Positions 15,419-44,540 of a stretch of DNA of 64,000 bases are shown in pieces. Source of the DNA: Escherichia coli. Its GTDB lineage: Bacteria > Pseudomonadota > Gammaproteobacteria > Enterobacterales > Enterobacteriaceae. Location of the stretch: assembly GCF_041248615.1 (NCBI RefSeq), contig NZ_CP158425.1; one strand, given 5' to 3'. The translations under genes and the position numbers were made by a program. The first letter of the stretch is position 1. Each line of letters begins with the position of its first letter. The notes below the pieces were generated by a model. The model worked only from the letters and a program-made list of their open reading frames with translations. It was not told where the DNA came from and made no database searches.

Positions 15419-15999
15419 GGCGGTCCACCGCCGAACCGCGATGCTGAAGCCACAAATCGAGCTTTGCGAGGAGTTTCTTTATCCGTCTCAATGAGATAAG
15501 GGCCAACTTTAGATCAAGTGCGTCGTAGTACGGCGTGCACCTTGGGCTTGATCCAGCTATAGTGTAATTGTATGCTGGAAATATGTGCAACCCTGGTGTC
15601 TAGGCCGTGCGAAGCCAATCAGGCTCGAAAGTCGTTGCGGGTTGTTATCCGTTAAAGGCGGCGACTGTAGCCGCCGCTATTTGGCCCCTTGATACCATTT
15701 AGCATTTGGAGCTTTAGGTTCTATAATTTAACGTTACGCTACAGCCGACACCCCGCTTGCCTGAGCGTTTGGATTTCAATCACTTAGTAGACCAACTTGC
15801 GGGTCGACGGTTCGTGTCCCTTCAAGGCGGAGGCTTCGGCAGCTGGCGTCTCTATGCCGCGGTGGTGCTTTTCCGAAACGGAAGTCGCCCATTCGCGTCA
15901 CGTAAACCGACCGTCAGGCGGTACGGCTTAGGAGAATAATCGCAAAGCAGACTGAGACCACCACCCTCGCGCTACCCTTTGCGCAGGCGTCGAAGGCGA

Positions 16000-16542
16000 T
16001 CAGGTGCGCTGATCGAGTCTGTCGAGCACCATCGCTGCAAGTTCATCGCTGGTGTGTGCACCACTATCGAGAACACGGGTTGTGGACGGAAGCCGTTCCC
16101 TTGCGGCCAAGCATCGGGCGACATTCGCTAATCGCCACTCTCGAATCTCCGCATTCCGATTCGGGTCAGGATGCATGGTCTGGTTCGAGATCCGGTGACG
16201 CAATAGGTCCTCGTTAAGCATCAGAAAGATGTGCAGCAGCTGATCGTCGATCTGCCTTAACCCGTCGAGTATCTCAGTCAGATAGTCCGGGTGCACGAGC
16301 GTCATTGGGATGATGATGTCCTGCGAGTAATTCCTGCGAATCTCGCTGACCGCAGCGATCGTAAGTCCCCTCCACAAGGGGAGATCCTGATAGTCTCCGC
16401 TCGCTGGTATGGGGACCGTTTCTTTCACCACGAACCCGATTTCCTCAGGGTCAAAGATCAGCGATTTCGGACGCCGATCGCGCAGCCGCTCAGCGAGAGT
16501 CGTCTTTCCGGCGCCGAAAGGTCCGTTGATCCAGATTATCAT
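16000..16542 (-). CDS. tmrB: TmrB-like P-loop ATPase (tunicamycin resistance protein family)
   Basis: 180 aa with Walker A GPFGAGKTT; lies immediately downstream of aac(3)-II as in remembered contexts. Confidence 0.8.
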   Translation of the reverse strand: MIIWINGPFGAGKTTLAERLRDRRPKSLIFDPEEIGFVVKETVPIPASGDYQDLPLWRGLTIAAVSEIRRNYSQDIIIPMTLVHPDYLTEILDGLRQIDDQLLHIFLMLNEDLLRHRISNQTMHPDPNRNAEIREWRLANVARCLAARERLPSTTRVLDSGAHTSDELAAMVLDRLDQRT

Positions 16543-16554
16543 TGTCGACGGCCT

Positions 16555-17415
16555 CTAACCGGAAGGCTCGCAAGAGCGCTGGGCGGCTTCGTGTGCTGGC
16601 ACGATCGGAGTGGCTCCGAAGTGCTTCTCAAGATAGGTGACGCCGAACGTCACGATGTCCTGCGCGTCGAACAGGTAGCACTGAGCAAAGCCCACGACAC
16701 CTTCTCGATGGCGACCGAGCTTCACGTAAGCATTTGCTATAGTTTCGACCGCATCCGGCTTTCCTTCGATAGCAAAGCAATCGAGAATGCCGTTTGAATC
16801 GTATTCTGATGCCGTTTTCCAGGCGACTTCACCGTTTCTTCCAAGCATCGGCATCTCATACGTCACCCATCGTTTGTTGGGGATATCCGCAACCGCCTCG
16901 GCGTAGTGCAATGCGGTAACGGAGTTTAGCGGCGCACCCAACAGCAGGGCCTTCCCGCCAAGGCGGACGAACCGCTCGACGGGCGACCCTTCCCCCAAGG
17001 CGTGACCGAGTTCGTGAGGCTCCGTCAGCGTTTCAGCTAGCGGACCAACCGCGACCATCGATGCATCGGGGTGCGCGCTGCGCCGCGCGCCGGGGGCTTG
17101 AACCAGAAATTGATTCAGCAGGCCGAACCCACGGTAAGTCCCGGCCGTTGCGGGATCGAACGGCGGCCAGGTACGGCGGGCTTTGTCATCCAACCGAGCG
17201 CCATTCAGAGTCTCCTCGTAGGGTGATCGGTCCCACGACGCGTATCCCATCACAGTGCCAGTCGGCCCAACCGCGGAGCGTAACGCGGCAACGACCGTCT
17301 CCGCTCCTCCTTCGACCGGACCAATCGCTTTAAGTGAGGCATGCACCATCAACAGGTCACCGGTTTGGACTCCGAGTTTTCGAATTGCCTCCGTTATTGC
17401 CTTCCGCGTATGCAT
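16555..17415 (-). CDS. aac(3)-II: aminoglycoside N-acetyltransferase AAC(3)-II (gentamicin resistance); sub-variant not resolved
   Basis: 286 aa MHTRKAITEAIRKLGVQTGDLLMVHASLKAIGPVEGGAETVVAALR... matches AAC(3)-II family. Confidence 0.92.
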   Translation of the reverse strand: MHTRKAITEAIRKLGVQTGDLLMVHASLKAIGPVEGGAETVVAALRSAVGPTGTVMGYASWDRSPYEETLNGARLDDKARRTWPPFDPATAGTYRGFGLLNQFLVQAPGARRSAHPDASMVAVGPLAETLTEPHELGHALGEGSPVERFVRLGGKALLLGAPLNSVTALHYAEAVADIPNKRWVTYEMPMLGRNGEVAWKTASEYDSNGILDCFAIEGKPDAVETIANAYVKLGRHREGVVGFAQCYLFDAQDIVTFGVTYLEKHFGATPIVPAHEAAQRSCEPSG

Positions 17416-17491
17416 CGCGATATCTCCTTTTAAATTAAAAATGAAGTTTTAAATCAATCTAAAGTATATATGAGTAAACTTGGTCTGACAG

Positions 17492-18364
<873 letters not shown>

Positions 18365-20737: not shown

Positions 20738-20870
20738 CGCTTTTCAGTATCTCGACAGGGATAACTTACTTTACCATCGGTTATCCCTTTTAGCCGCACA
20801 AATTTTAGCCATGGCTTTTCAGGAAGTCAGGGCTATCAGAATGGCCTTAGAAAGCCTAGTCAAAGAGCTG

Positions 20871-21671
20871 TCACGAGAACACCGTTAGCTTAGCGTACGA
20901 TTTTTTCCGAATTCTGCGGTTCCCCCTTAAATACCTTCCGATGGACTTAAACCTTGCCGCTGCAACTTCCTCGAAATAGGGCAGCATTCTTTTGCTGGCA
21001 TTAGCGATTGCCTGCGTTCGTTGTGTGATGATTTTGCTGATGGCTGTGCTGATCTGCCCTTCTTTTAAGGCCGCTTCTCTGATTTGTTCAATGCGGGTAT
21101 CTGAAATACCAGAGGACAGAGCATTCTGAACTGATCCAATTGCCAAGGAAGTGACCGCCTGCTGCTCTTGAGAGGGCACTAACGCAACGCTAATGCCCGT
21201 CACAGGGTTTTCACGGTCATCTGTACCTAATTGCTCAATCGCGAGGTCACGGAGCCCCTGAGCATCACTCACGAGGGCTGTAAGCGATGCCTGTAGGCTA
21301 TTCACTTCTTCCTGAGCTTGTCTGAGTTCAGCATCCCGGATTACCTTATGGTCGGGTTCAAATACAAAACTGGACAGAAAATCCTTAACCAGGAAGCGAT
21401 GCTCTCGCATTTCTTTGCCACGTTCCCTACGGTAGCCACTGCTGTCTTCAGTGACAATAGCAACAGTCTGACCGTAAACGCGGGGATGGGCGCGTAGAAT
21501 TACTGTATGCAGCTTATCTTCAACGTAACGCAAAGACGTAATGAGCAGTGTATCCCCTGCCACAATACCCTCTTCAGGGATGCTGTCAGTGGACGTCCAG
21601 TACTGACCCGCCAGCAAAGAATGAAATCGCTCTAAACGGTCAATGCTATTTTTGCTGACCAGGTCACCCAT
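20871..21671 (-). CDS. hypothetical protein (266 aa)
   Basis: ORF with GGAAGGA upstream of the ATG; no recognisable motif. Confidence 0.5.
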   Translation of the reverse strand: MGDLVSKNSIDRLERFHSLLAGQYWTSTDSIPEEGIVAGDTLLITSLRYVEDKLHTVILRAHPRVYGQTVAIVTEDSSGYRRERGKEMREHRFLVKDFLSSFVFEPDHKVIRDAELRQAQEEVNSLQASLTALVSDAQGLRDLAIEQLGTDDRENPVTGISVALVPSQEQQAVTSLAIGSVQNALSSGISDTRIEQIREAALKEGQISTAISKIITQRTQAIANASKRMLPYFEEVAAARFKSIGRYLRGNRRIRKKSYAKLTVFS

Positions 21672-21864
21672 ATACTTTTCCTTCCAGATTCGTGTGTTAG
21701 GTGAATCATACCAGATTGCCCTTGCCGTCTAATAACGCAGAAAACTGTGAATCCAAAATTCCTTAAATTCAAACCTGTCCAATATAAAAGATGGCTCTTT
21801 TTCTTATCCAGTGTTAAGCGATAATGCTCAATTTTATTTCATTATTGTCAGAATCAAAATAATC

Positions 21865-21896
21865 TGAAAATAAAAAAGGCTTCAGAATTGAAGCCT
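21865..21896 (-). terminator. rho-independent terminator after the 118-aa gene
   Basis: Stem AGGCTTCA / TGAAGCCT followed by a T-run on the minus strand. Confidence 0.5.
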
Positions 21897-21921
21897 CTAT
21901 ATTATACAACGTGAATGTATT

Positions 21922-22278
21922 TTATTTATCTTTCACCGGGTTCATTTCCCAGTATCTTTCACGTACGTTTTCTTGGCAATGGTCCGCTCGCTCCGGCGTG
22001 TCCCTTTTACGAGTAGCAAATGCTTCAATTACGGCATTCAAGTCTTTTTCTTTGATTTTAGATCCAACAGGCAAGTTTTCTTCAAACTCAGTCCTTACCA
22101 GTTCTTTCGTTTTTTTATAATCGGTTTCACTTTGGATTTCAGGTTTTAAACAAATATCGGCAACCATCACATCTGATTTGCCCGGGATCGGTTTTTTCCC
22201 GTTTTCAGATGCAAGGACCGCAGAGGAGGTAAAGGCGACAGACAGAGTTGCACATAACAGAAGGTATTTTAATTTCAT
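21922..22278 (-). CDS. hypothetical secreted protein (118 aa, signal peptide)
   Basis: N-terminal MKLKYLLLCATLSVAFTSSAVLA signal-like sequence; GGAG upstream. Confidence 0.5.
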   Translation of the reverse strand: MKLKYLLLCATLSVAFTSSAVLASENGKKPIPGKSDVMVADICLKPEIQSETDYKKTKELVRTEFEENLPVGSKIKEKDLNAVIEAFATRKRDTPERADHCQENVRERYWEMNPVKDK

Positions 22279-22427
22279 GACTCACTCCATGATTATCAAT
22301 GATGGTTGCTCAGACACATCATTTATACCATGCCTGTCACCGAATACGAGATCCCCATATTTTGGCTTTAAATATTATCCAATAGGGTTTCATACACCTG
22401 GCTTCTGAAAGCAAGGTTCAAGGAGCT

Positions 22428-23045
22428 TCAGGGGGAAATCAGATTGTTGTCGACCCAGTACTTGTGCAAACCTACCACCCAATTCCTGGAAATGGACGAA
22501 AGTTCATGCGCCAGTTCACGACAGCATTCAGGCGTAAAAATACGTATGGGTCCTGAAGTACCGATATCAACAGACATGATAAACTCCAGAATGTTGCCAT
22601 GGCATAGGTTGTTTCTCAGCCTGACAATTTCTGCTTCAGGTGTTCTCCCGGCTGCTACCTTAACCAACATATCCTGCTCGGCTGGAAATGAAAGTAATTC
22701 TACCGGCACCCCTTCCTGCTTGGCCTTTCTCAGTAAGGCATTACTCATTACGGAGATACCCTCCAAGTCCACCAGCTCAGGAGCTGCATGCTGATCGTTA
22801 ACTGTTGGTTTCAGCATCAGCGACTTCAACGTAACCATGAGTGATGTTTCAATCCCGTTCAGGAAGCTCGTACAGGCCGGTATCCATAGTTCGTGATGCA
22901 ACGCCTCGGTTGCTTGTTTAAAGAACCAGTCAATCACGGGGACAGTGTGATAATCATAATAGTGATTTATCTCGCTGAATCTTGACATATAAGCATCGTA
23001 CTCAGCCTGGTCTTCAGGAGATAAAAAATTTGGTGGGAGGGGCAT
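22428..23045 (-). CDS. hypothetical protein with HEPN-like Rx4HG motif (205 aa)
   Basis: RNNLCHG motif near C-terminus; otherwise unassigned. Confidence 0.45.
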   Translation of the reverse strand: MPLPPNFLSPEDQAEYDAYMSRFSEINHYYDYHTVPVIDWFFKQATEALHHELWIPACTSFLNGIETSLMVTLKSLMLKPTVNDQHAAPELVDLEGISVMSNALLRKAKQEGVPVELLSFPAEQDMLVKVAAGRTPEAEIVRLRNNLCHGNILEFIMSVDIGTSGPIRIFTPECCRELAHELSSISRNWVVGLHKYWVDNNLISP

Positions 23046-26489: not shown

Positions 26490-26548
26490 AAGCAGACGGC
26501 GGGAAGAGAATGTTCAAAAGTGACTTTTGGACACGCACATAAACGTGG

Positions 26549-38091: not shown

Positions 38092-38604
38092 TTAATCTAA
38101 TTCTTCTTGAGAATACCTCTCTATGGCTGAAGCAGTTGAAGATAATCTGCAACGTGGACAATAAGCATCATTTGTCACTGGCACAATGTATGGGCGTTTA
38201 CATTTTTCGCAGGCACCTAGTTCTTCAATTTCTTTCATAGAAGTAAGGATTTCTATTATTTTATTAACTTCCGGTGCGCATACAAAGTATCCCAGATTAT
38301 GAAGGACACTCATTATTCGGTTGAAGTCAATTTGCCGAAAACTCGCTTCCGGATTTATTGGATCAAAACCAAAATAGTTAACTGCGACATCAATAACAGC
38401 AGAAAAAGCTCGGCGGTTATCTGTGCGTTTGCTCCAGCCCCGGATACCTTTTTTGAGTTTTGTTTTTGCACCAGGCTCAAAATCGATATTTTCAGCAACA
38501 TGATTACCGTACAAAATTCGTATTGTATTTTTATTTGCCCCAAGCGACATAGTCCTTGCTGCTCGCAATAGAGCATTAGCTTTTGTTTGATCGACCTTTG
38601 CCAT
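38092..38604 (-). CDS. hypothetical protein with C-terminal zinc ribbon (possible transfer regulator)
   Basis: 170 aa; CEKC...CPRC motif; position equals trhR/trhY-like genes next to oriT in IncHI Tra1 (assignment not verified). Confidence 0.5.
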   Translation of the reverse strand: MAKVDQTKANALLRAARTMSLGANKNTIRILYGNHVAENIDFEPGAKTKLKKGIRGWSKRTDNRRAFSAVIDVAVNYFGFDPINPEASFRQIDFNRIMSVLHNLGYFVCAPEVNKIIEILTSMKEIEELGACEKCKRPYIVPVTNDAYCPRCRLSSTASAIERYSQEELD

Positions 38605-38605
38605 A

Positions 38606-39406
38606 TTAATAATCCTTTAACATAACTTTATTTGTTAAAGTGTTGAACACATCCTGACGGTGACTGGTGAACATAGTGTCATAACGTAATAGTTCCATCA
38701 AATCATCACTAACTTTTCCTAACCGGATGTCAGCAGACAATTCATAAGCCCAGGCAAAAACTTTCGTTTTAAGTGAAACACTCTCTTCAATATGCCCTTG
38801 TGAGAAAGCAATTGTACGTGGGAAAAGAACGACATCGTTAATTGTTTTTAACGATGAATAACCAATGTCTTTAATAGCATCAGCTGTAGTTGGTTTTAAA
38901 CCAAAGAAAACACTTACAAACTCTGGTGCGAGCATTGAGATAAAGAACACCTGCATAAAGTAGTCATTCTGTATATCAACACATTTAGAACGCAACTCAT
39001 GAATCTTCTTGGGATTATAGATATCCACTGTACCATTCAGAAAAGTCACTTTTTCACCGGCATCGTAAATACCATAGTCAATATCATTTGTATCATATTC
39101 ACGAATTACATTGGAATCACCGTCCAAGACCGCAGAAAAAAACCTCTCCCATGTAATTTCCTTTCCGAGTGTACGCGGAACCAAAAAACTACCTGGACGT
39201 GTTTCCACTTCAAAAGCTAAATCAGCGGCTGTACTAAATCCTTTCCCAAATAGGCGACGCTGGAGAAGAGGAGTCCCAGTTTGATATGCAGAAGATCCAT
39301 GCACAGGCAATAACATTAAAAATGCACGGTAACTACGAATAAGCGAAATCTCAGTGCGGAAAAGTTTACCGAGTAAGCTACGAGTTAAATTATCAGATTC
39401 TGACAT
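38606..39406 (-). CDS. hypothetical protein (266 aa)
   Basis: ORF separated by 1 nt from the following gene; no motif recognised. Confidence 0.5.
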   Translation of the reverse strand: MSESDNLTRSLLGKLFRTEISLIRSYRAFLMLLPVHGSSAYQTGTPLLQRRLFGKGFSTAADLAFEVETRPGSFLVPRTLGKEITWERFFSAVLDGDSNVIREYDTNDIDYGIYDAGEKVTFLNGTVDIYNPKKIHELRSKCVDIQNDYFMQVFFISMLAPEFVSVFFGLKPTTADAIKDIGYSSLKTINDVVLFPRTIAFSQGHIEESVSLKTKVFAWAYELSADIRLGKVSDDLMELLRYDTMFTSHRQDVFNTLTNKVMLKDY

Positions 39407-39481
39407 GTGCTGATTGTCCTTGCGCCATTACAATTGTTCAAATCTTCAACATGGATTTTTTGTTAGGTGTTCGGTAGGGTG

Positions 39482-39494
39482 AAAAGTAACTTTT
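39482..39494. repeat. AAAAGT-N-ACTTTT motif instance (AAAAGTAACTTTT)
   Basis: Perfect; oriT-candidate intergenic region. Confidence 0.6.
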
Positions 39495-39733
39495 AGTATT
39501 TTCTTAAGGCTTGAATAAGCCTTAAATCTATCCCTTCAACCACACCGCTTACTTGTAACACTTTTTAACCAAACTGACCAGAATTTTATCAAAATTTCTT
39601 CGCATGCTAACGAAATGTGAAGCGATTAAAAAAAAACCTAAATCCAGCCCCTCCCAACGTTGGATTAGAATAACGACGTCTTTCACTGACCGTCATAAAC
39701 TGACATTTTTACTTTTCATCAACCTCATGCTTA

Positions 39734-39898
39734 CATAGGATCACTAAACAAAGAAAAGTGACCCTATGAATGCCTCACATAGGGTCACTTATGTTTGAAA
39801 AGTGACCCTATGTAATGTCGTCATAGGGTCACTTTTTATAAAAGTGTCACTATGGACAAAGTTCCATAGGGTCATTTTTTTTGGAAAAGTGGCACTAG
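39734..39898. repeat. array of about 43-bp-periodic imperfect palindromes (AAAAGTGACCCTATG-N9-CATAGGGTCACTTTT); candidate oriT/operator region
   Basis: Three full palindromes at 39754-39790, 39797-39837, 39841-39880 plus half-sites at 39734-39745 and 39883-39898, in the 760-bp divergent intergenic region before the relaxase operon. Confidence 0.5.
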
Positions 39899-39966
39899 AT
39901 ATATGTATAACTTTAATAGAGCAATGCACATTATCAAAAGCAATAATCCACAATGGTCATTCCCTC

Positions 39967-39979
39967 AAAAGTAACTTTA
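39967..39979. repeat. AAAAGT-N-ACTTTT motif instance (AAAAGTAACTTTA)
   Basis: 12/13; oriT-candidate intergenic region, other side of the palindrome array. Confidence 0.55.
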
Positions 39980-40164
39980 GAGGGTAGCGATGGAAGTGAG
40001 GCTAAACTCGCTGTTACTGTTTCTGAAGGCCCCTCCCGAATGGGGGAAACAGCGAGTGCATTACATCTGTTCAATTCCCTCATCAAAGAGCATTCAAAAA
40101 TCTTCTGTTCGTGAAAAAAAACGGAAATTTCCTCCGGTATAGTAATTTCACATCAGGAGGCGTC

Positions 40165-40650
40165 ATGAGTAATTCGAATCTTATAAGTTCTATAGAGCTA
40201 ACACGTAAAAATTTACGTGCTCAGATTGAAGGTTTGCGTGTTGAGGCTGAAGATCTCATTACAAAATACTGGATCAAGTGGAAGGAACGAAACCACCAAG
40301 AGATTAACCTTACCCGACATAGCAAAGTTCCAAAGAGGGAGTATCTGGGTTCTTACGCACCAAAAGTTGAGCTAATTGGTAATGCCAGAAAAGTAACGAT
40401 CACTTGGCATCAGTTCAGCCCTTATAAAACAAGAGCGCCTAGTCACATGTCAAAACGGGTGCAACCAATGAAAAGTGGAAAATATTCTAAGAACTGTTTT
40501 GTAAACCATGCCAGCTGGGAATACGAAATGATTTCTGAAACGGAAGCATTGCTGGAGCCTTACAGAGAAATGCTTGAGCTCTATCATTCAGCATATATCG
40601 AACTTGGACGAAAAATCCGTCAATACTCAAAAACTAAGGTGGCACAATGA
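40165..40650 (+). CDS. hypothetical protein, first gene of relaxase operon (possible relaxosome accessory)
   Basis: ATG at 40165 with AGGAGG 6 nt upstream; ORF-track start 40111 less likely. Confidence 0.5.
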   Translation: MSNSNLISSIELTRKNLRAQIEGLRVEAEDLITKYWIKWKERNHQEINLTRHSKVPKREYLGSYAPKVELIGNARKVTITWHQFSPYKTRAPSHMSKRVQPMKSGKYSKNCFVNHASWEYEMISETEALLEPYREMLELYHSAYIELGRKIRQYSKTKVAQ

Positions 40651-41384
40651 CCGACGCAATTATCACGGACAATGAGCGTATTAACATTGAACCAAAAGAT
40701 GTAATGGTAAAAGGTTCAAATAAAAAGCAAGGCGTAAACGCTCAAACTTCTACTCAACGTAGACCAGAGCACCAGGGTATGGCCAAAGTTATTATTAACC
40801 CCGGCACCCCAGATTTTAACCGGTTTTTAACTGCCAGAAATGGAGCAGTCATCAGAGGTTTTGATGATGTGAGTATCGCTATTTCCTCTCTCTTTAAAAC
40901 GGTTGATGCAGTTAAACATCCTGACCTTGTTCAGGCTATTCAGGATTGGTTCAACGAGCTGCATGAAGAAAACAATAAGATGAAAGAAAATCTTGTTGCT
41001 TATATTAAGTCAATTGAGTTCGACAAGAATGACTCATTCATGTCATCAACTCAGTTTGTACCTTTCAGTTTTGAACCAGTACAACTCAACTTCAATAACC
41101 ACAACACCATGAGGTTTTACAAGTACATCTTCGAGATGAACCAGCTCATGAACACAATGTATGAGTACAACTCATTGGGTTTACTGGCTGTAAGCGACTA
41201 TCCGGTTATGTCTCACAACATTATAAAGAGTATTAATTTATATGTTGAGAATGTGAAAAAGACTCTGAATGTTTCTCGCCGTAAGGATGGGCCATACAGT
41301 CCAGCAGAGTTCATCACCAAAGTAATGCAATATAAAAGTGTGCAGGCATACATTGCAGCCGAACTGTCAGGCAAACGTCGATAA
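40647..41384 (+). CDS. hypothetical protein (245 aa)
   Basis: Overlaps upstream stop by 4 nt (operon coupling). Confidence 0.5.
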   Translation: MTDAIITDNERINIEPKDVMVKGSNKKQGVNAQTSTQRRPEHQGMAKVIINPGTPDFNRFLTARNGAVIRGFDDVSIAISSLFKTVDAVKHPDLVQAIQDWFNELHEENNKMKENLVAYIKSIEFDKNDSFMSSTQFVPFSFEPVQLNFNNHNTMRFYKYIFEMNQLMNTMYEYNSLGLLAVSDYPVMSHNIIKSINLYVENVKKTLNVSRRKDGPYSPAEFITKVMQYKSVQAYIAAELSGKRR

Positions 41385-41387
41385 GGT

Positions 41388-44300
41388 ATGATGATGAATT
41401 TCAGGGCGCTGTATTTATGTATTAAACGGATTTTGGGGATATTCTCATCTCAGGAGAATGATGCAACCTCTGTAATGATTGAGGATATATCAAGCCTCTC
41501 TCCTTTTGCGCAGATTCTAGGAGATCAGAAGTACACTGTTCCTGATCATCCAAATCCAGAAGTCCTGAAATTCATCGAGTATCCAACTCGTCCGACGGGC
41601 ATACAGACATTTAATGAACAGTCAATCCTGTCTCTGTATCGGGAAAAGCTGCACTCAATTTCAATGATGTTAGCTATCAGCGATAGCGACATCAGGGACG
41701 ATGCATATACATTTACTAATTTAGTATTAAAGCCCTTGGTTGAATATGTTCGCTGGATACATCTTTTGCCAGCTTCCGAAAATCATCATCATAATGGTAT
41801 TGGTGGGTTACTTTCTCACAGCCTGGAAGTGGCCATACTCTCTTTAAAAAATGCGCATCACTCAGAACTGAGACCAATCGGATATCAAGATGAAGAAGTA
41901 GTCCGTAGAAAAGTATATCTCTATGCTGCGTTTATCTGTGGTTTAGTCCATGATGCCGGAAAGGTTTACGATCTCGATATTGTAAGCCTGAATTTAGCTA
42001 GTCCGATCATTTGGACGCCAAGCTCACAAAGTCTTCTTGACTGGGCACGTGAAAATGACGTGGTTGAATACGAAATCCACTGGCGAAAGCGTATTCATAA
42101 TCAACATAATATCTGGTCCAGCGTTTTCCTTGAGCGAATCCTAAACCCGGTATGTCTTGCATTTTTGGATCGGGTAAATAAAGAACGTGTTTATTCAAAA
42201 ATGATCACCGCCCTAAACGTTTATACTGATGGGAATGACTTTTTGTCTAAATGCGTGAGGACCGCTGATTTCTATTCTACTGGTACAGACCTTAATGTTT
42301 TACGTGACCCTATCATGGGTCTGCGTTCTAATGATGCAGCAGCAAGGGCCATTAGTACCATCAAGCACAACTTTACCAGTATCAATATCAACAATTACAA
42401 TGCTAAGCCTATGCACATCATTATCGTAAATGGTGAGGTATACCTTAACGAGAACGCATTCCTTGATTTTGTTCTCAATGATTTCGAATTACATAAATAT
42501 AACTTCCCTCAGGGAGAGGCTGGTAAGACGGTATTGGTAGAATCCCTAGTTCAACGTGGTTACGTCGAGCCCTATGATGATGAGCGTGTCGTTCACTACT
42601 TCATTCCGGGTATCTATTCGGAAAACGAAATATCAAACATCTTTAGAAATGGGATAGGGAAACTAGAATTCTATAACCTTCTTAAGCTAAGGTGGATTGG
42701 TTTAATCTTTGATTCCTATAAAATCCCTGACTCAGTGCCGGGTCTTTTTAGCGTTAATGCCAATAAAGACTTTATTTACATTGACGAGCAAAAAACAGTT
42801 ACTGAATACAGAAGACCAGTGCCCGGTCGGGACGCTATAACTAAAATTACTGATACTGTTGAGACGGCTGTTCTTAAGGTTAATGATTTAGGCCGCTCCA
42901 CTGCCTCTATTGATGTTGATATACATTCTAAGAAAAATGAAGGCTCATCCGACGATTTTGAGAAGAAAGCCGAAAGTGATAATGAAATTGATAATGACAC
43001 GCAGATAGTTAAATCTGAGGGTGAGGAAGCAGCTGATCCTGTCATTCCTGATATAGAAGAAAGTGAAGATGAATCGGCAAAGGACACGGAATCCCATGTC
43101 CTGGTCAACCAACTTCATGAACTCCTTTTAAGCGCTCCACTTTCCAATGACTATATAGTGTGTGTAGATGCTGTCCCCTACCTCAACATAGATGCCACTA
43201 TGGCATTGCTGCCGGGATTAGATGAAAAAGCATTTAGTGAAGAGCCCTATTTCCAACTGACATTCAGAGAAGGCTCTCTCGATGGAATGTGGATAGTAAG
43301 GGACATTGACGATCTGCGTTTAGTCCAGCTCGGCGATAACTGCGCCGGGTTCCAGCTCACCTATCATGAGCCAAGAAGGCCAACAACTTTAAAGTCACTT
43401 TTCAATACTTCTATGTATCAGGCATTAGTGATTAATGATGAGTCTTCTGTTGAAAACTCTGCCCCACGTCCAAAGCAAACGCTTGAGCTGCCTCCCCCAC
43501 GTGTAAATGCACTCGAAGAACATTCTGGCGACGTGGAATATCATGGAACCGATAGTGCATCCGCGACTGGTCCGCTGAAAACTGAGGCTGTGGAATATGA
43601 ACATTATCAACATCTTTTTGAGGAAGAAGATGAAGAGCATGAGATCATTGATTATACCGATTTCACACAGCTTAGTGTTTCTCGGCCAGAAGTCGGTAGT
43701 TGTGCAACAAGCTCTTCGGTCCATAATGAAAAGCTTCTCCCCGAGCCGTCAGAATTACCAGAACTTAACCGAGAACAGAACGCTGATCCCCAGGGTACGA
43801 TTGAACGCTCTATGGATGTTTCTGTAGGACAAGAAAACTCAGAACCAGATACTGAGGGTAACTGCCCACCACCAGCTGAAGTTGTGTATTCCCAGACCGA
43901 AGCAGCCGCAACCAGTGTGATGGCAAGTGAAGAGCCCGCCTTACCTCCTGTACTTGAAGAATCAAATGGAGAGCATGCGCCCACAGACGCTAAGGGGCAT
44001 CATCTTTCGCCAGCACTGGCCAGACTGTTCGCCCCAACAGCACCGGTAGAAAAACAAAATCCCAAGCGCAACCGGAATAAATCATCGGACAAAGCAGAAG
44101 TACAAAAACCAGCATCACCTGTTTCTGGTCACAATCTGAACAGTAAAGTCTTTGCAACTACTGAATCAGACCAAAATGGTGAATTCTCGCTTATAAGCGA
44201 AGGTGACGTTACAGAGCTTGAATTTGTAGAAATTGCGTCAGTACTGCATCAAATTCTGTCCAAAATGGAGGTGGCGTTTAAAAGAAAGCGCAAAAACAGA

Positions 44301-44540
44301 TTTATGGTAAGTACTCCTAATACTCTCTATCTGACCCAATCTTGCGTGGAAAAATTTGGGTCGCAGTTAGAGGCTCAAGATCTTTTCAATAAGCTTCCTC
44401 AGTACCTCGTTAATTCTGGTGCTGTGATCAATACAAAATGCCATGCATTTAACATGCCTACTTTGCTGGCCGCATCAGACCGGGCGAAAGTGGACATTGA
44501 ACGAATTATCAATAACCTGAAAGAGGCTGGGAACCTATAA
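41388..44540 (+). CDS. traI: MOB-H-family relaxase TraI-like (HD-hydrolase motif)
   Basis: 1050 aa; HHHNG and LVHDAGK motifs consistent with MOB-H relaxases; precedes coupling protein; acidic low-complexity C-terminal half. Confidence 0.65.
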   Translation: MMMNFRALYLCIKRILGIFSSQENDATSVMIEDISSLSPFAQILGDQKYTVPDHPNPEVLKFIEYPTRPTGIQTFNEQSILSLYREKLHSISMMLAISDSDIRDDAYTFTNLVLKPLVEYVRWIHLLPASENHHHNGIGGLLSHSLEVAILSLKNAHHSELRPIGYQDEEVVRRKVYLYAAFICGLVHDAGKVYDLDIVSLNLASPIIWTPSSQSLLDWARENDVVEYEIHWRKRIHNQHNIWSSVFLERILNPVCLAFLDRVNKERVYSKMITALNVYTDGNDFLSKCVRTADFYSTGTDLNVLRDPIMGLRSNDAAARAISTIKHNFTSININNYNAKPMHIIIVNGEVYLNENAFLDFVLNDFELHKYNFPQGEAGKTVLVESLVQRGYVEPYDDERVVHYFIPGIYSENEISNIFRNGIGKLEFYNLLKLRWIGLIFDSYKIPDSVPGLFSVNANKDFIYIDEQKTVTEYRRPVPGRDAITKITDTVETAVLKVNDLGRSTASIDVDIHSKKNEGSSDDFEKKAESDNEIDNDTQIVKSEGEEAADPVIPDIEESEDESAKDTESHVLVNQLHELLLSAPLSNDYIVCVDAVPYLNIDATMALLPGLDEKAFSEEPYFQLTFREGSLDGMWIVRDIDDLRLVQLGDNCAGFQLTYHEPRRPTTLKSLFNTSMYQALVINDESSVENSAPRPKQTLELPPPRVNALEEHSGDVEYHGTDSASATGPLKTEAVEYEHYQHLFEEEDEEHEIIDYTDFTQLSVSRPEVGSCATSSSVHNEKLLPEPSELPELNREQNADPQGTIERSMDVSVGQENSEPDTEGNCPPPAEVVYSQTEAAATSVMASEEPALPPVLEESNGEHAPTDAKGHHLSPALARLFAPTAPVEKQNPKRNRNKSSDKAEVQKPASPVSGHNLNSKVFATTESDQNGEFSLISEGDVTELEFVEIASVLHQILSKMEVAFKRKRKNRFMVSTPNTLYLTQSCVEKFGSQLEAQDLFNKLPQYLVNSGAVINTKCHAFNMPTLLAASDRAKVDIERIINNLKEAGNL

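Follow-up and report, generated by a model that had tools for sequence, protein, structure and literature searches.

Between the divergent transfer operons of an IncHI2 plasmid backbone, in the 64,000-nucleotide stretch of Escherichia coli DNA analyzed here (the window), lies an array of phased palindromes that we take, with a probability of roughly 0.6, to be the portion of the IncHI2 origin of transfer (oriT) to which an accessory protein binds, that is, a phased scaffold for the MobI-family protein TraH beside a candidate nic core. As a locus, the IncHI oriT region is already known and its detection here is no discovery, and a phased, lineage-specific array of MobI sites beside a conserved core is a reasonable, testable hypothesis rather than a surprise. 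IncHI2 plasmids rank among the main vehicles for mcr-1, mcr-9, carbapenemase genes, and heavy-metal resistance genes, and in the literature that we searched we found no definition of the recognition sequence of a MobI-family protein or of the nick site of a MOBH1 relaxase. Comparative anatomy of the locus offers a definition of the repeat unit, lineage-specific half-sites, a unit spacing of 44 or 55-56 bp, and an ATGTA core after the last unit.

The sequence itself and a repeat finder place the array at 39734-39899, where eight 15-bp half-sites with the consensus CATAGGGTCACTTTT follow one another in strictly alternating orientation (Table 1). Half-sites in the CATAGGGTCACTTTT orientation are called R, and their reverse complements are called L. 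At up to two mismatches to the consensus, the window contains six matches, all within one 126-bp stretch of the array, compared with an expectation of 0.13 per 64 kb and 0.0003 per 165 bp. At up to three mismatches, eight matches are found in the window against 1.73 expected, and none of 100 shuffles reached eight; two extra window matches with three mismatches are within this chance expectation. The array seen in a preliminary description of this DNA is thus real and far above chance. Tandem Repeats Finder reported nothing on the array because alternate half-sites are inverted. GC content across the array (0.33 to 0.39) falls within that of the neighboring sequence (roughly 0.30 to 0.46), so that the array is not markedly richer in AT than the backbone. 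The three match places per record in the BLAST tables probably reflect self-similarity of the array.

In the window, both pairings of neighboring half-sites, L-N9-R and R-N3-7-L, are palindromic. The preliminary description had chosen the former, reading three L-N9-R palindromes that repeat every 42 to 44 bp, plus two flanking half-sites, up to position 39898. All of these elements are present, the palindrome starts are 44 and 42 bp apart, and L2-N9-R3 is perfect (15/15), with one mismatch in L1-N9-R2. The third spacer (L3-R4) is 10 rather than 9 nt, the array ends one base later, and the register is off by half a repeat: the array consists of four full R-N-L units, with no orphan half-sites. 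Our automatic palindrome picker mixed both registers at 44-bp spacing, and the register was decided from five lineages with 55-56-bp spacing (L007, L008, L010, L020, and L021). In these, only the R-N-L pairing is still palindromic; its unit keeps a length of 31 to 35 bp while the gap between units grows from 9-12 to 21-23 bp, and therefore the conserved module is R-N-L. The conserved unit is CATAGGGTCACTTTT-N3-7-AAAAGTGACCCTATG, of which the window holds four complete copies of about 34 bp each, 43 to 44 bp apart.

Across 13 lineages, the unit spacing is 43 to 45 or 55 to 56 bp, or about four or five turns of 11 bp, and the spacings fit best with a period of 11 bp (mean residual, 1.08, versus 2.31 for 10.5 bp). 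The earlier suggestion that the repeats lie on one face of the helix is backed in this respect, and the spacing data support units that are held in helical phase.

In a close alignment of IncHI2, IncHI1 (L002), L003, and L004 (about 75% DNA identity over the region), the half-sites are invariant, the 9-10-bp spacers between units and the 3-7-bp unit centers vary freely, and the sequence on both sides of the array is largely unalignable. Other conserved islands are a block at 39547-39612, the 13-mer copies at 39482 and 39967 (see below), and the last 60 bp before traH. More distant loci were gathered with TraH as a protein probe (MobI identity, 33 to 86%). All 12 further lineages carry a comparable array of three to six palindromic units of about 33 bp upstream of mobI, contrary to the absence from homologous plasmids that had been named in advance as a ground for rejection. 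A mobI gene and a MobH relaxase gene are found near the array in the 13 lineages wherever downstream sequence exists, and the synteny of a trhR-like gene divergent from mobI-orf-TraI_2 is common to all retrieved loci except two short contigs (L015 and L018).

The half-sites differ between lineages. They read CATAGGGTCAC in Photorhabdus (L014; three units), CATAGAGTCAC in L015 (a partial contig), CATAGTGTyAC in L012/L013 (four units), TATGTTTAACT in L018 (six units spaced by 45, 45, 44, 44, and 44 bp), and CTTGTCGCACT in L019 (44 and 44 bp). Among the lineages with wider spacing, IncHI3 (L007) has CATTkGTAnCT, IncHI1B (L009/L010) has CATTAGTACyT (IncHI1B-type sequence, CATTAGTACTTTT), and IncHI5 (L008) has a CATTGGTGAAT-type half-site, each spaced by 45 and 56 bp; L020 has a TTGTsmwAC-type half-site (56 bp), and L021 has TATACCTGACT (55, 55, and 44 bp). 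Half-site identity is 0.71 to 0.98 within a lineage and 0.24 to 0.56 between distant lineage groups; therefore, all half-site copies change together. Such concerted change is the pattern that a sequence-specific binder with drifting specificity would produce. The number of units is three in L005 and L014, four in IncHI1 and IncHI2, and six in L018, a polymorphism that fits recombination between repeats and a tolerance for different copy numbers. In L005 and in L014 (Photorhabdus tasmaniensis, 289-kb contig; positions 2605-2750), one 44-bp unit fewer is present.

At the end of the array, the longest invariant run of the intergenic alignment (39885-39913) is composed of L4 and ACTAGATAtATGTATAACTT, with a single variable column at 39902. 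From its conservation, we infer that 39894-39913 is a candidate nic core; it includes TATATGTATAAC at 39900-39911. A conserved (TAGATAT)ATGTA motif adjoins the last unit in most lineages, and a related motif (TAGATATAT, ATGTATAA, or AAGTATAA) follows that unit in most lineages, distant ones included; no such motif is evident after the last unit of L019. A stretch of the IncC minimal oriT, AAATTCCAGATAGATAGTTATGTGGATAGG (pSN254, L016; 264-300), resembles the IncHI1 core CACTAGATAGATGTATAAC (L002; 3486-3505) in the pattern AGATAGAT...ATGT. This likeness of AGATAGATAGTTATGTGGAT to CTAGATAGATGTATAAC is a lead only; it may reflect a nic core common to MOBH1 systems or be a coincidence between AT-rich sequences.

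The window represents the IncHI2 backbone: a 771-bp intergenic query is 100% identical to many IncHI2 plasmids, with at least 99% identity in about 857 of the 72,556 PLSDB records and at least 80% query cover in 957 (about 960 of these records have the region in almost unaltered form), and the array is 100% identical to that of the IncHI2 prototype R478 (190722-190917). It sits in a 758-bp gap (39407-40164) between divergent operons, as the preliminary description had stated, with trhR leading leftward and traH-orf245-traI rightward. This intergenic region corresponds to the oriT of R27 (IncHI1; Lawley et al. 2002, as cited in PMC10838148, PMC7366339, and bioRxiv 10.1101/2025.04.21.649884), a homologous locus with the same trhR-traH-orf-traI arrangement, and the earlier proposal of an oriT candidate is upheld by this correspondence and by the MobI-family and MobH relaxase genes that follow. 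The R27 locus has the same eight half-sites at the same positions, with 76% identity to the window in TraH and 86% identity over the first 500 residues of TraI. Compared with R27, the window carries the IncHI2 (R478-type) version, in which the spacers differ and the R1 arm is degenerate. The array has three features of a MobI-dependent MOBH1 oriT: repeat-rich non-coding DNA (here, eight half-sites in four palindromic units), a position directly upstream of a MobI-family gene, and cis linkage to the genes for a coupling protein and a MobH (TraI_2) relaxase. Full-text literature searches for the half-site sequence and for phrases with “R27 oriT” returned nothing relevant.

Several published statements bear on TraH as the proposed binder. 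TraH of R27 is a required, MobI-like mobilization factor of MOBH11 systems (bioRxiv 10.1101/2025.04.21.649884), R0122 traH is listed under relaxosome proteins and trhR under regulators (PMC7366339), and MobI-like genes directly adjoin oriT in SXT and R27 (PMC10838148). The MobI protein of IncC plasmids associates with itself, binds the C-terminal domain of TraI, and sets oriT selectivity (bioRxiv 10.1101/2025.04.21.649884). The TraH protein of the window matches the Pfam MobI family (PF19456; E value, 4.8e-22; model positions 1-115 of 116), and its gene begins 265 bp after the end of the array, in the same intergenic region. A natural comparison is offered by two Klebsiella loci, L007 and L010 (IncHI3/IncHI1B), whose flanks are 98 to 100% identical (TrhR, 99%; TrhY, 99%; Orf245, 98%; TraI, 98%), whereas a tract at about 1850-2730 diverges, comprising the intergenic region (39 to 68% identity) and the 5' part of mobI (83 to 94% over the first 250 nt or so; MobI protein, 94%). 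The half-sites of the two loci differ (CATTkGTAnCT versus CATTAGTACyT), and the tract has the look of an oriT-mobI specificity module that was swapped or evolves fast. Among the neighboring proteins, only MobI tracks the array in this pair; as the tract of divergence is contiguous, this observation is no more than suggestive.

We propose the following working model, in which the binding of the units by TraH, its stoichiometry, the position of nic, and the recruitment of the IncHI TraI are inferred. Each of the four units would be bound by a TraH dimer, and helical phase would place the bound dimers on roughly one face of the DNA. The dimers may then form a cooperative nucleoprotein scaffold or filament that ends at unit 4, which abuts the conserved, presumably easily melted AT-rich core ACTAGATATATGTATAAC. 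By analogy with IncC MobI, TraH would recruit the MobH relaxase TraI, which would nick in or near ACTAGATATATGTATAAC and so start transfer, and the lineage-specific half-sites would decide which MobI, and hence which plasmid, recognizes the oriT.

Some points weigh against this model. (i) The divergent tract in L007 and L010 being contiguous, the divergence of MobI could be due to hitchhiking rather than coadaptation. (ii) The AlphaFold2 model of TraH, which is confident (pLDDT, 89.7; pTM, 0.82) and consists of two long helices (residues 3-48 and 119-160) and a small beta-sheet, has no recognizable helix-turn-helix or ribbon-helix-helix (RHH) motif, and no PDB structure resembled it apart from V-ATPase stalk subunits, prefoldin, and helical hairpins of a generic kind, so that no DNA-binding mode was assigned. 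As modeled, the fold speaks neither for nor against DNA binding, and a segment-wise comparison of MobI conservation singled out no DNA-reading region. (iii) In the published work, MobI is only “thought to” bind DNA at oriT, and the relaxase C-terminal domains of MOBH11 and MOBH12 (IncC) are dissimilar, which bears on the analogy with IncC (bioRxiv 10.1101/2025.04.21.649884). (iv) The oriT of IncC plasmid pSN254, the one other MobI system compared, has short ATTCCAGAT/ATCTGGAAT motifs and 11-14-bp direct repeats over the mobI promoter and lacks 33-35-bp palindromes at 44-bp phasing; therefore, the IncHI architecture is not general to MobI systems.

Known systems resemble the array in part. Among them are the oriT-mobI loci of IncA/C plasmids and SXT/R391 elements (MOBH12), in which MobI is essential (PMC5587640, PMC4542580, and bioRxiv 10.1101/2025.04.21.649884). 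The IncA/C oriT covers about 150 bp directly upstream of mobI and harbors multiple repeats, both inverted and direct, whose copy number varies by plasmid (PMC5587640). IncC MobI is only 17 to 18% identical to TraH, and IncHI plasmids, unlike IncC, have mobI and the relaxase gene in a common operon. A functional parallel lies in F TraM (sbmA-C), R388 TrwA (sbaA/B), and RP4 TraJ/TraK, where several phased sites beside nic are occupied by an oligomeric plasmid-specific protein, setting oriT specificity and aiding the loading of the relaxase. The sites of these proteins are unlike the IncHI array in sequence and geometry, and TraM, TrwA, and TraJ, with RHH-type or other folds, are unrelated to the helical hairpin and beta-sheet of TraH, which has no PDB relative. 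TraY/TraM and TraH/J/K have been named as auxiliaries of DNA transfer and replication (Dtr) (PMC10838148). In the gonococcal genetic island, whose MOBH2 TraI is a member of this relaxase superfamily, with a TraI_2 HD domain, an inverted repeat beside nic is required (PMC6736028); there, a single 32-nt inverted repeat has nic 3 nt 5' of it and no MobI is needed, whereas the IncHI locus has four units and a separate conserved AT-rich core.

The preliminary description had also considered the array as an operator or a centromere-like site. A regulatory operator, through which TrhR/TrhY, HtdA, Orf245, or an autorepressing TraH would control the divergent trhR and traH promoters with no direct role in DNA processing, is in our view unlikely. 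The location between divergent operons suits it, and there are precedents: MobC of RA3 autoregulates the mobC-nic operon (PMC4175270), the IncA/C oriT overlaps the mobI promoters (PMC5587640), and TrhR, TrhY, and HtdA are known regulators of the R27 tra genes (PMC7366339). A regulon-wide regulator would be expected to act at several operons, yet the half-site occurs nowhere else in the window, and the 50-kb Tra2 region of R478 has two matches at three mismatches against 1.49 expected; a 13-mer described below suits such a role better. The array is also about 265 bp from the traH start codon, stands over 120 bp away from the promoter predicted for trhR, has no overlap with the conserved promoter-like blocks, and differs between L007 and L010 although their TrhR, TrhY, and Orf245 proteins are 98 to 99% identical. 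Autoregulation by TraH is compatible with the scaffold model and is not a true rival to it.

That the units act instead as hairpins in the single-stranded transferred DNA, or as cruciforms, serving as structural signals that guide relaxase recognition or termination or, in the recipient, priming and early transcription, we consider improbable. They do fold, at -12.1, -7.7, -6.1, and -4.3 kcal/mol, below shuffled controls (z, -4.1 to -8.9), and the only biochemically studied MOBH relaxase, TraI of the gonococcal genetic island, needs a hairpin adjacent to nic in which structure matters over sequence (PMC6736028). A hairpin requires complementarity within a unit only, yet the units of a lineage share one sequence that changes in concert; the asymmetries that break the stems (the L3 arm GTGkCAC and the L4 arm GGCACTAGA) are conserved rather than compensated, and spacing quantized by 11 bp is a property of duplex DNA and its helical face. 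Searches against Rfam gave only far sub-threshold, hairpin-like matches to eukaryotic miRNA models, and a known RNA element was dismissed. A partition centromere or replication iterons, to which a phased non-coding repeat array on a large low-copy plasmid might belong, are very improbable: the par genes of R478, parAB and parMR, are in the Tra2 region (ParA/ParB, 15475-17729; ParM and its partner, 20835-22522), the RepB-family initiator is at 1-876, all about 170 kb from the array, no par or rep gene adjoins the array in any of the 13 lineages, and the repeats are inverted and alternating, not direct as in iterons.

Returning to the scaffold model, a bolder extension, to which we give somewhat less than even chances, is that MOBH11 oriTs carry in this array a readable code of their specificity. 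Each MobI lineage would read its own half-site of about 11 nt as three to six dimer sites in an 11-bp register (44 or 55-56 bp), with the DNA wrapped or underwound and the relaxase delivered to the (TAGATAT)ATGTA nic core. If this were true, cross-mobilization among IncHI1, HI2, HI3, and HI5 plasmids and involving truncated oriT-mobI remnants on IncF, IncY, and IncR plasmids would be predictable from sequence, and MobI would represent a new type of DNA-binding fold (helical hairpin and beta-sheet). A possible outcome is a sequence-based forecast of which helpers mobilize which IncHI-type plasmids and oriT-mobI remnants.

A second palindromic motif, the 13-bp AAAAGTNACTTTT, recurs along the plasmid as the preliminary description had noted, with 13 matches in the window versus 0.24 expected and 15 versus 0.40 in R478 1-50000 (L022; Tra2). 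Its sites are both intergenic (at the start of trhU and upstream of the trhR and traH genes and of the trhA-L operon) and intragenic (trhR, traI, traG/traD, and trhI). The idea that the array is this motif split by an insertion is not supported, since the 13-mer stays AAAGTNACTTT in lineages in which the half-sites have wholly changed (L021 and L008), and it is unchanged where MobI is only 33 to 42% identical; therefore, the two motifs evolve independently. The AAAAGT that they have in common is the A-tract center of the units in many lineages, though not in all. Presumably, the 13-mer and the half-site have different binders; by its distribution, the 13-mer fits better as a regulator site than the array half-site does, and our guess for its binder is a conserved tra regulator, TrhR/TrhY or HtdA. 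The copy at 39967-39979 is embedded in an extended palindrome whose flanks differ by lineage yet stay complementary (GGCAGAAAAAGTTACTTTTCTGCC in L003, TGGAAAAGTTACTTTTCTTCCA in L002, and CACAAAAGTTACTTTTGTTGTG in L012), whereas most other copies in the window lack palindromic flanks (that at 26516 is partly extended). This extended palindrome is possibly a further oriT element, e.g., a relaxase hairpin.

Table 1. Features of the IncHI2 oriT region and its surroundings (window coordinates)
Feature	Position	Strand or orientation	Sequence	Remarks
Half-site R1	39734-39748	CATAGGGTCACTTTT orientation	CATAGGATCACTAAA	
Half-site L1	39754-39768	reverse complement of CATAGGGTCACTTTT	AAAAGTGACCCTATG	
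Half-site R2	39778-39792	CATAGGGTCACTTTT orientation		
Half-site L2	39798-39812	reverse complement of CATAGGGTCACTTTT		
Half-site R3	39822-39836	CATAGGGTCACTTTT orientation		
Half-site L3	39840-39854	reverse complement of CATAGGGTCACTTTT		
Half-site R4	39865-39879	CATAGGGTCACTTTT orientation		
Half-site L4	39885-39899	reverse complement of CATAGGGTCACTTTT	AAAAGTGGCACTAGA	
Unit 1, R1-N5-L1	39734..39768		CATAGGATCACTAAACAAAGAAAAGTGACCCTATG	R1 arm degenerate in IncHI2, perfect in IncHI1
Unit 2, R2-N5-L2	39778..39812		CATAGGGTCACTTATGTTTGAAAAGTGACCCTATG	
Unit 3, R3-N3-L3	39822..39854		CATAGGGTCACTTTTTATAAAAGTGTCACTATG	asymmetric L3 arm GTGkCACTATG kept in IncHI1, L003, L004, and L014
Unit 4, R4-N5-L4	39865..39899		CATAGGGTCATTTTTTTTGGAAAAGTGGCACTAGA	variant L4 arm invariant across IncHI1/HI2-like lineages
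Conserved core	39894..39913		ACTAGATATATGTATAACTT	overlaps end of unit 4; candidate nic/relaxase-recognition core
13-mer sites	26516, 27417, 29510, 36422, 39041, 39482, 39967, 43390, 44828, 46558, 51460, 56509, 56635		AAAAGTNACTTTT	
13-mer copy	39482..39494		AAAAGTAACTTTT	76 bp upstream of trhR start codon; conserved in all lineages
Extended palindrome	39962..39984		CCCTCAAAAGTAACTTTAGAGGG	contains second 13-mer copy, 39967-39979
Promoter-like block	39547..39612	-		conserved; -35 TTAGCA 39610-39605, -10 TAAAAT 39588-39583, with TG, 16-bp spacer
trhY-position gene	38092..38604	-		170 aa; downstream of trhR; no Pfam family
trhR	38606..39406	-		first gene of leftward operon; regulator in R27 (PMC7366339); no Pfam family
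traH (RefSeq, mobI)	40165..40650	+		161 aa; Pfam MobI PF19456; proposed binder of array
orf245	40647..41384	+		between traH and traI; conserved, function unassigned; no Pfam/NCBIfam family
traI	41388..44540	+		MobH-family relaxase, 1050 aa; PF07514 TraI_2 found on homologues

In the leftward operon, trhR and the trhY-position gene are followed by trhF/H/G-type mating-pair genes. On the identical region, the RefSeq annotation lists downstream genes for the mobH relaxase, the traD (traG) coupling protein, and a DUF4400 (TraJ-like) protein. TraH alone among TraH, TrhR, the TrhY-position protein, and Orf245 was matched by Pfam; hmmscan against NCBIfam assigned no family to TraH, TrhR, or TrhY, the sole match to Orf245 being far below threshold (17.8 bits versus a cutoff of 358), and PHROGs matched proteins of the locus to families of unknown function only. 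The 66-bp block at 39547-39612 is almost invariant across IncHI1/HI2-like lineages and holds both a sigma-70-like promoter directed leftward and CTTACTTGTAACACTTTTTAACCAAACT; by its consensus match, it is probably the promoter and operator of trhR. A predicted leftward sigma-70 promoter beside the array (39937-39910) was treated as spurious, as the stretch is not conserved in IncHI1.

Truncated, IncHI1-like oriT-mobI remnants exist on non-IncHI plasmids (L005, L006, and matches H84-H88, the latter IncFIB). L005 (NZ_CP080596; IncY) keeps three units and is flanked by IS1, and all that is left in L006 (NZ_CP103723; IncFII/IncR) is unit 4, the ATGTATAAC core, the 13-mer, and a mobI gene that is intact. 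Such remnants may be mobilizable by IncHI helpers and may constitute a natural deletion series of the oriT.

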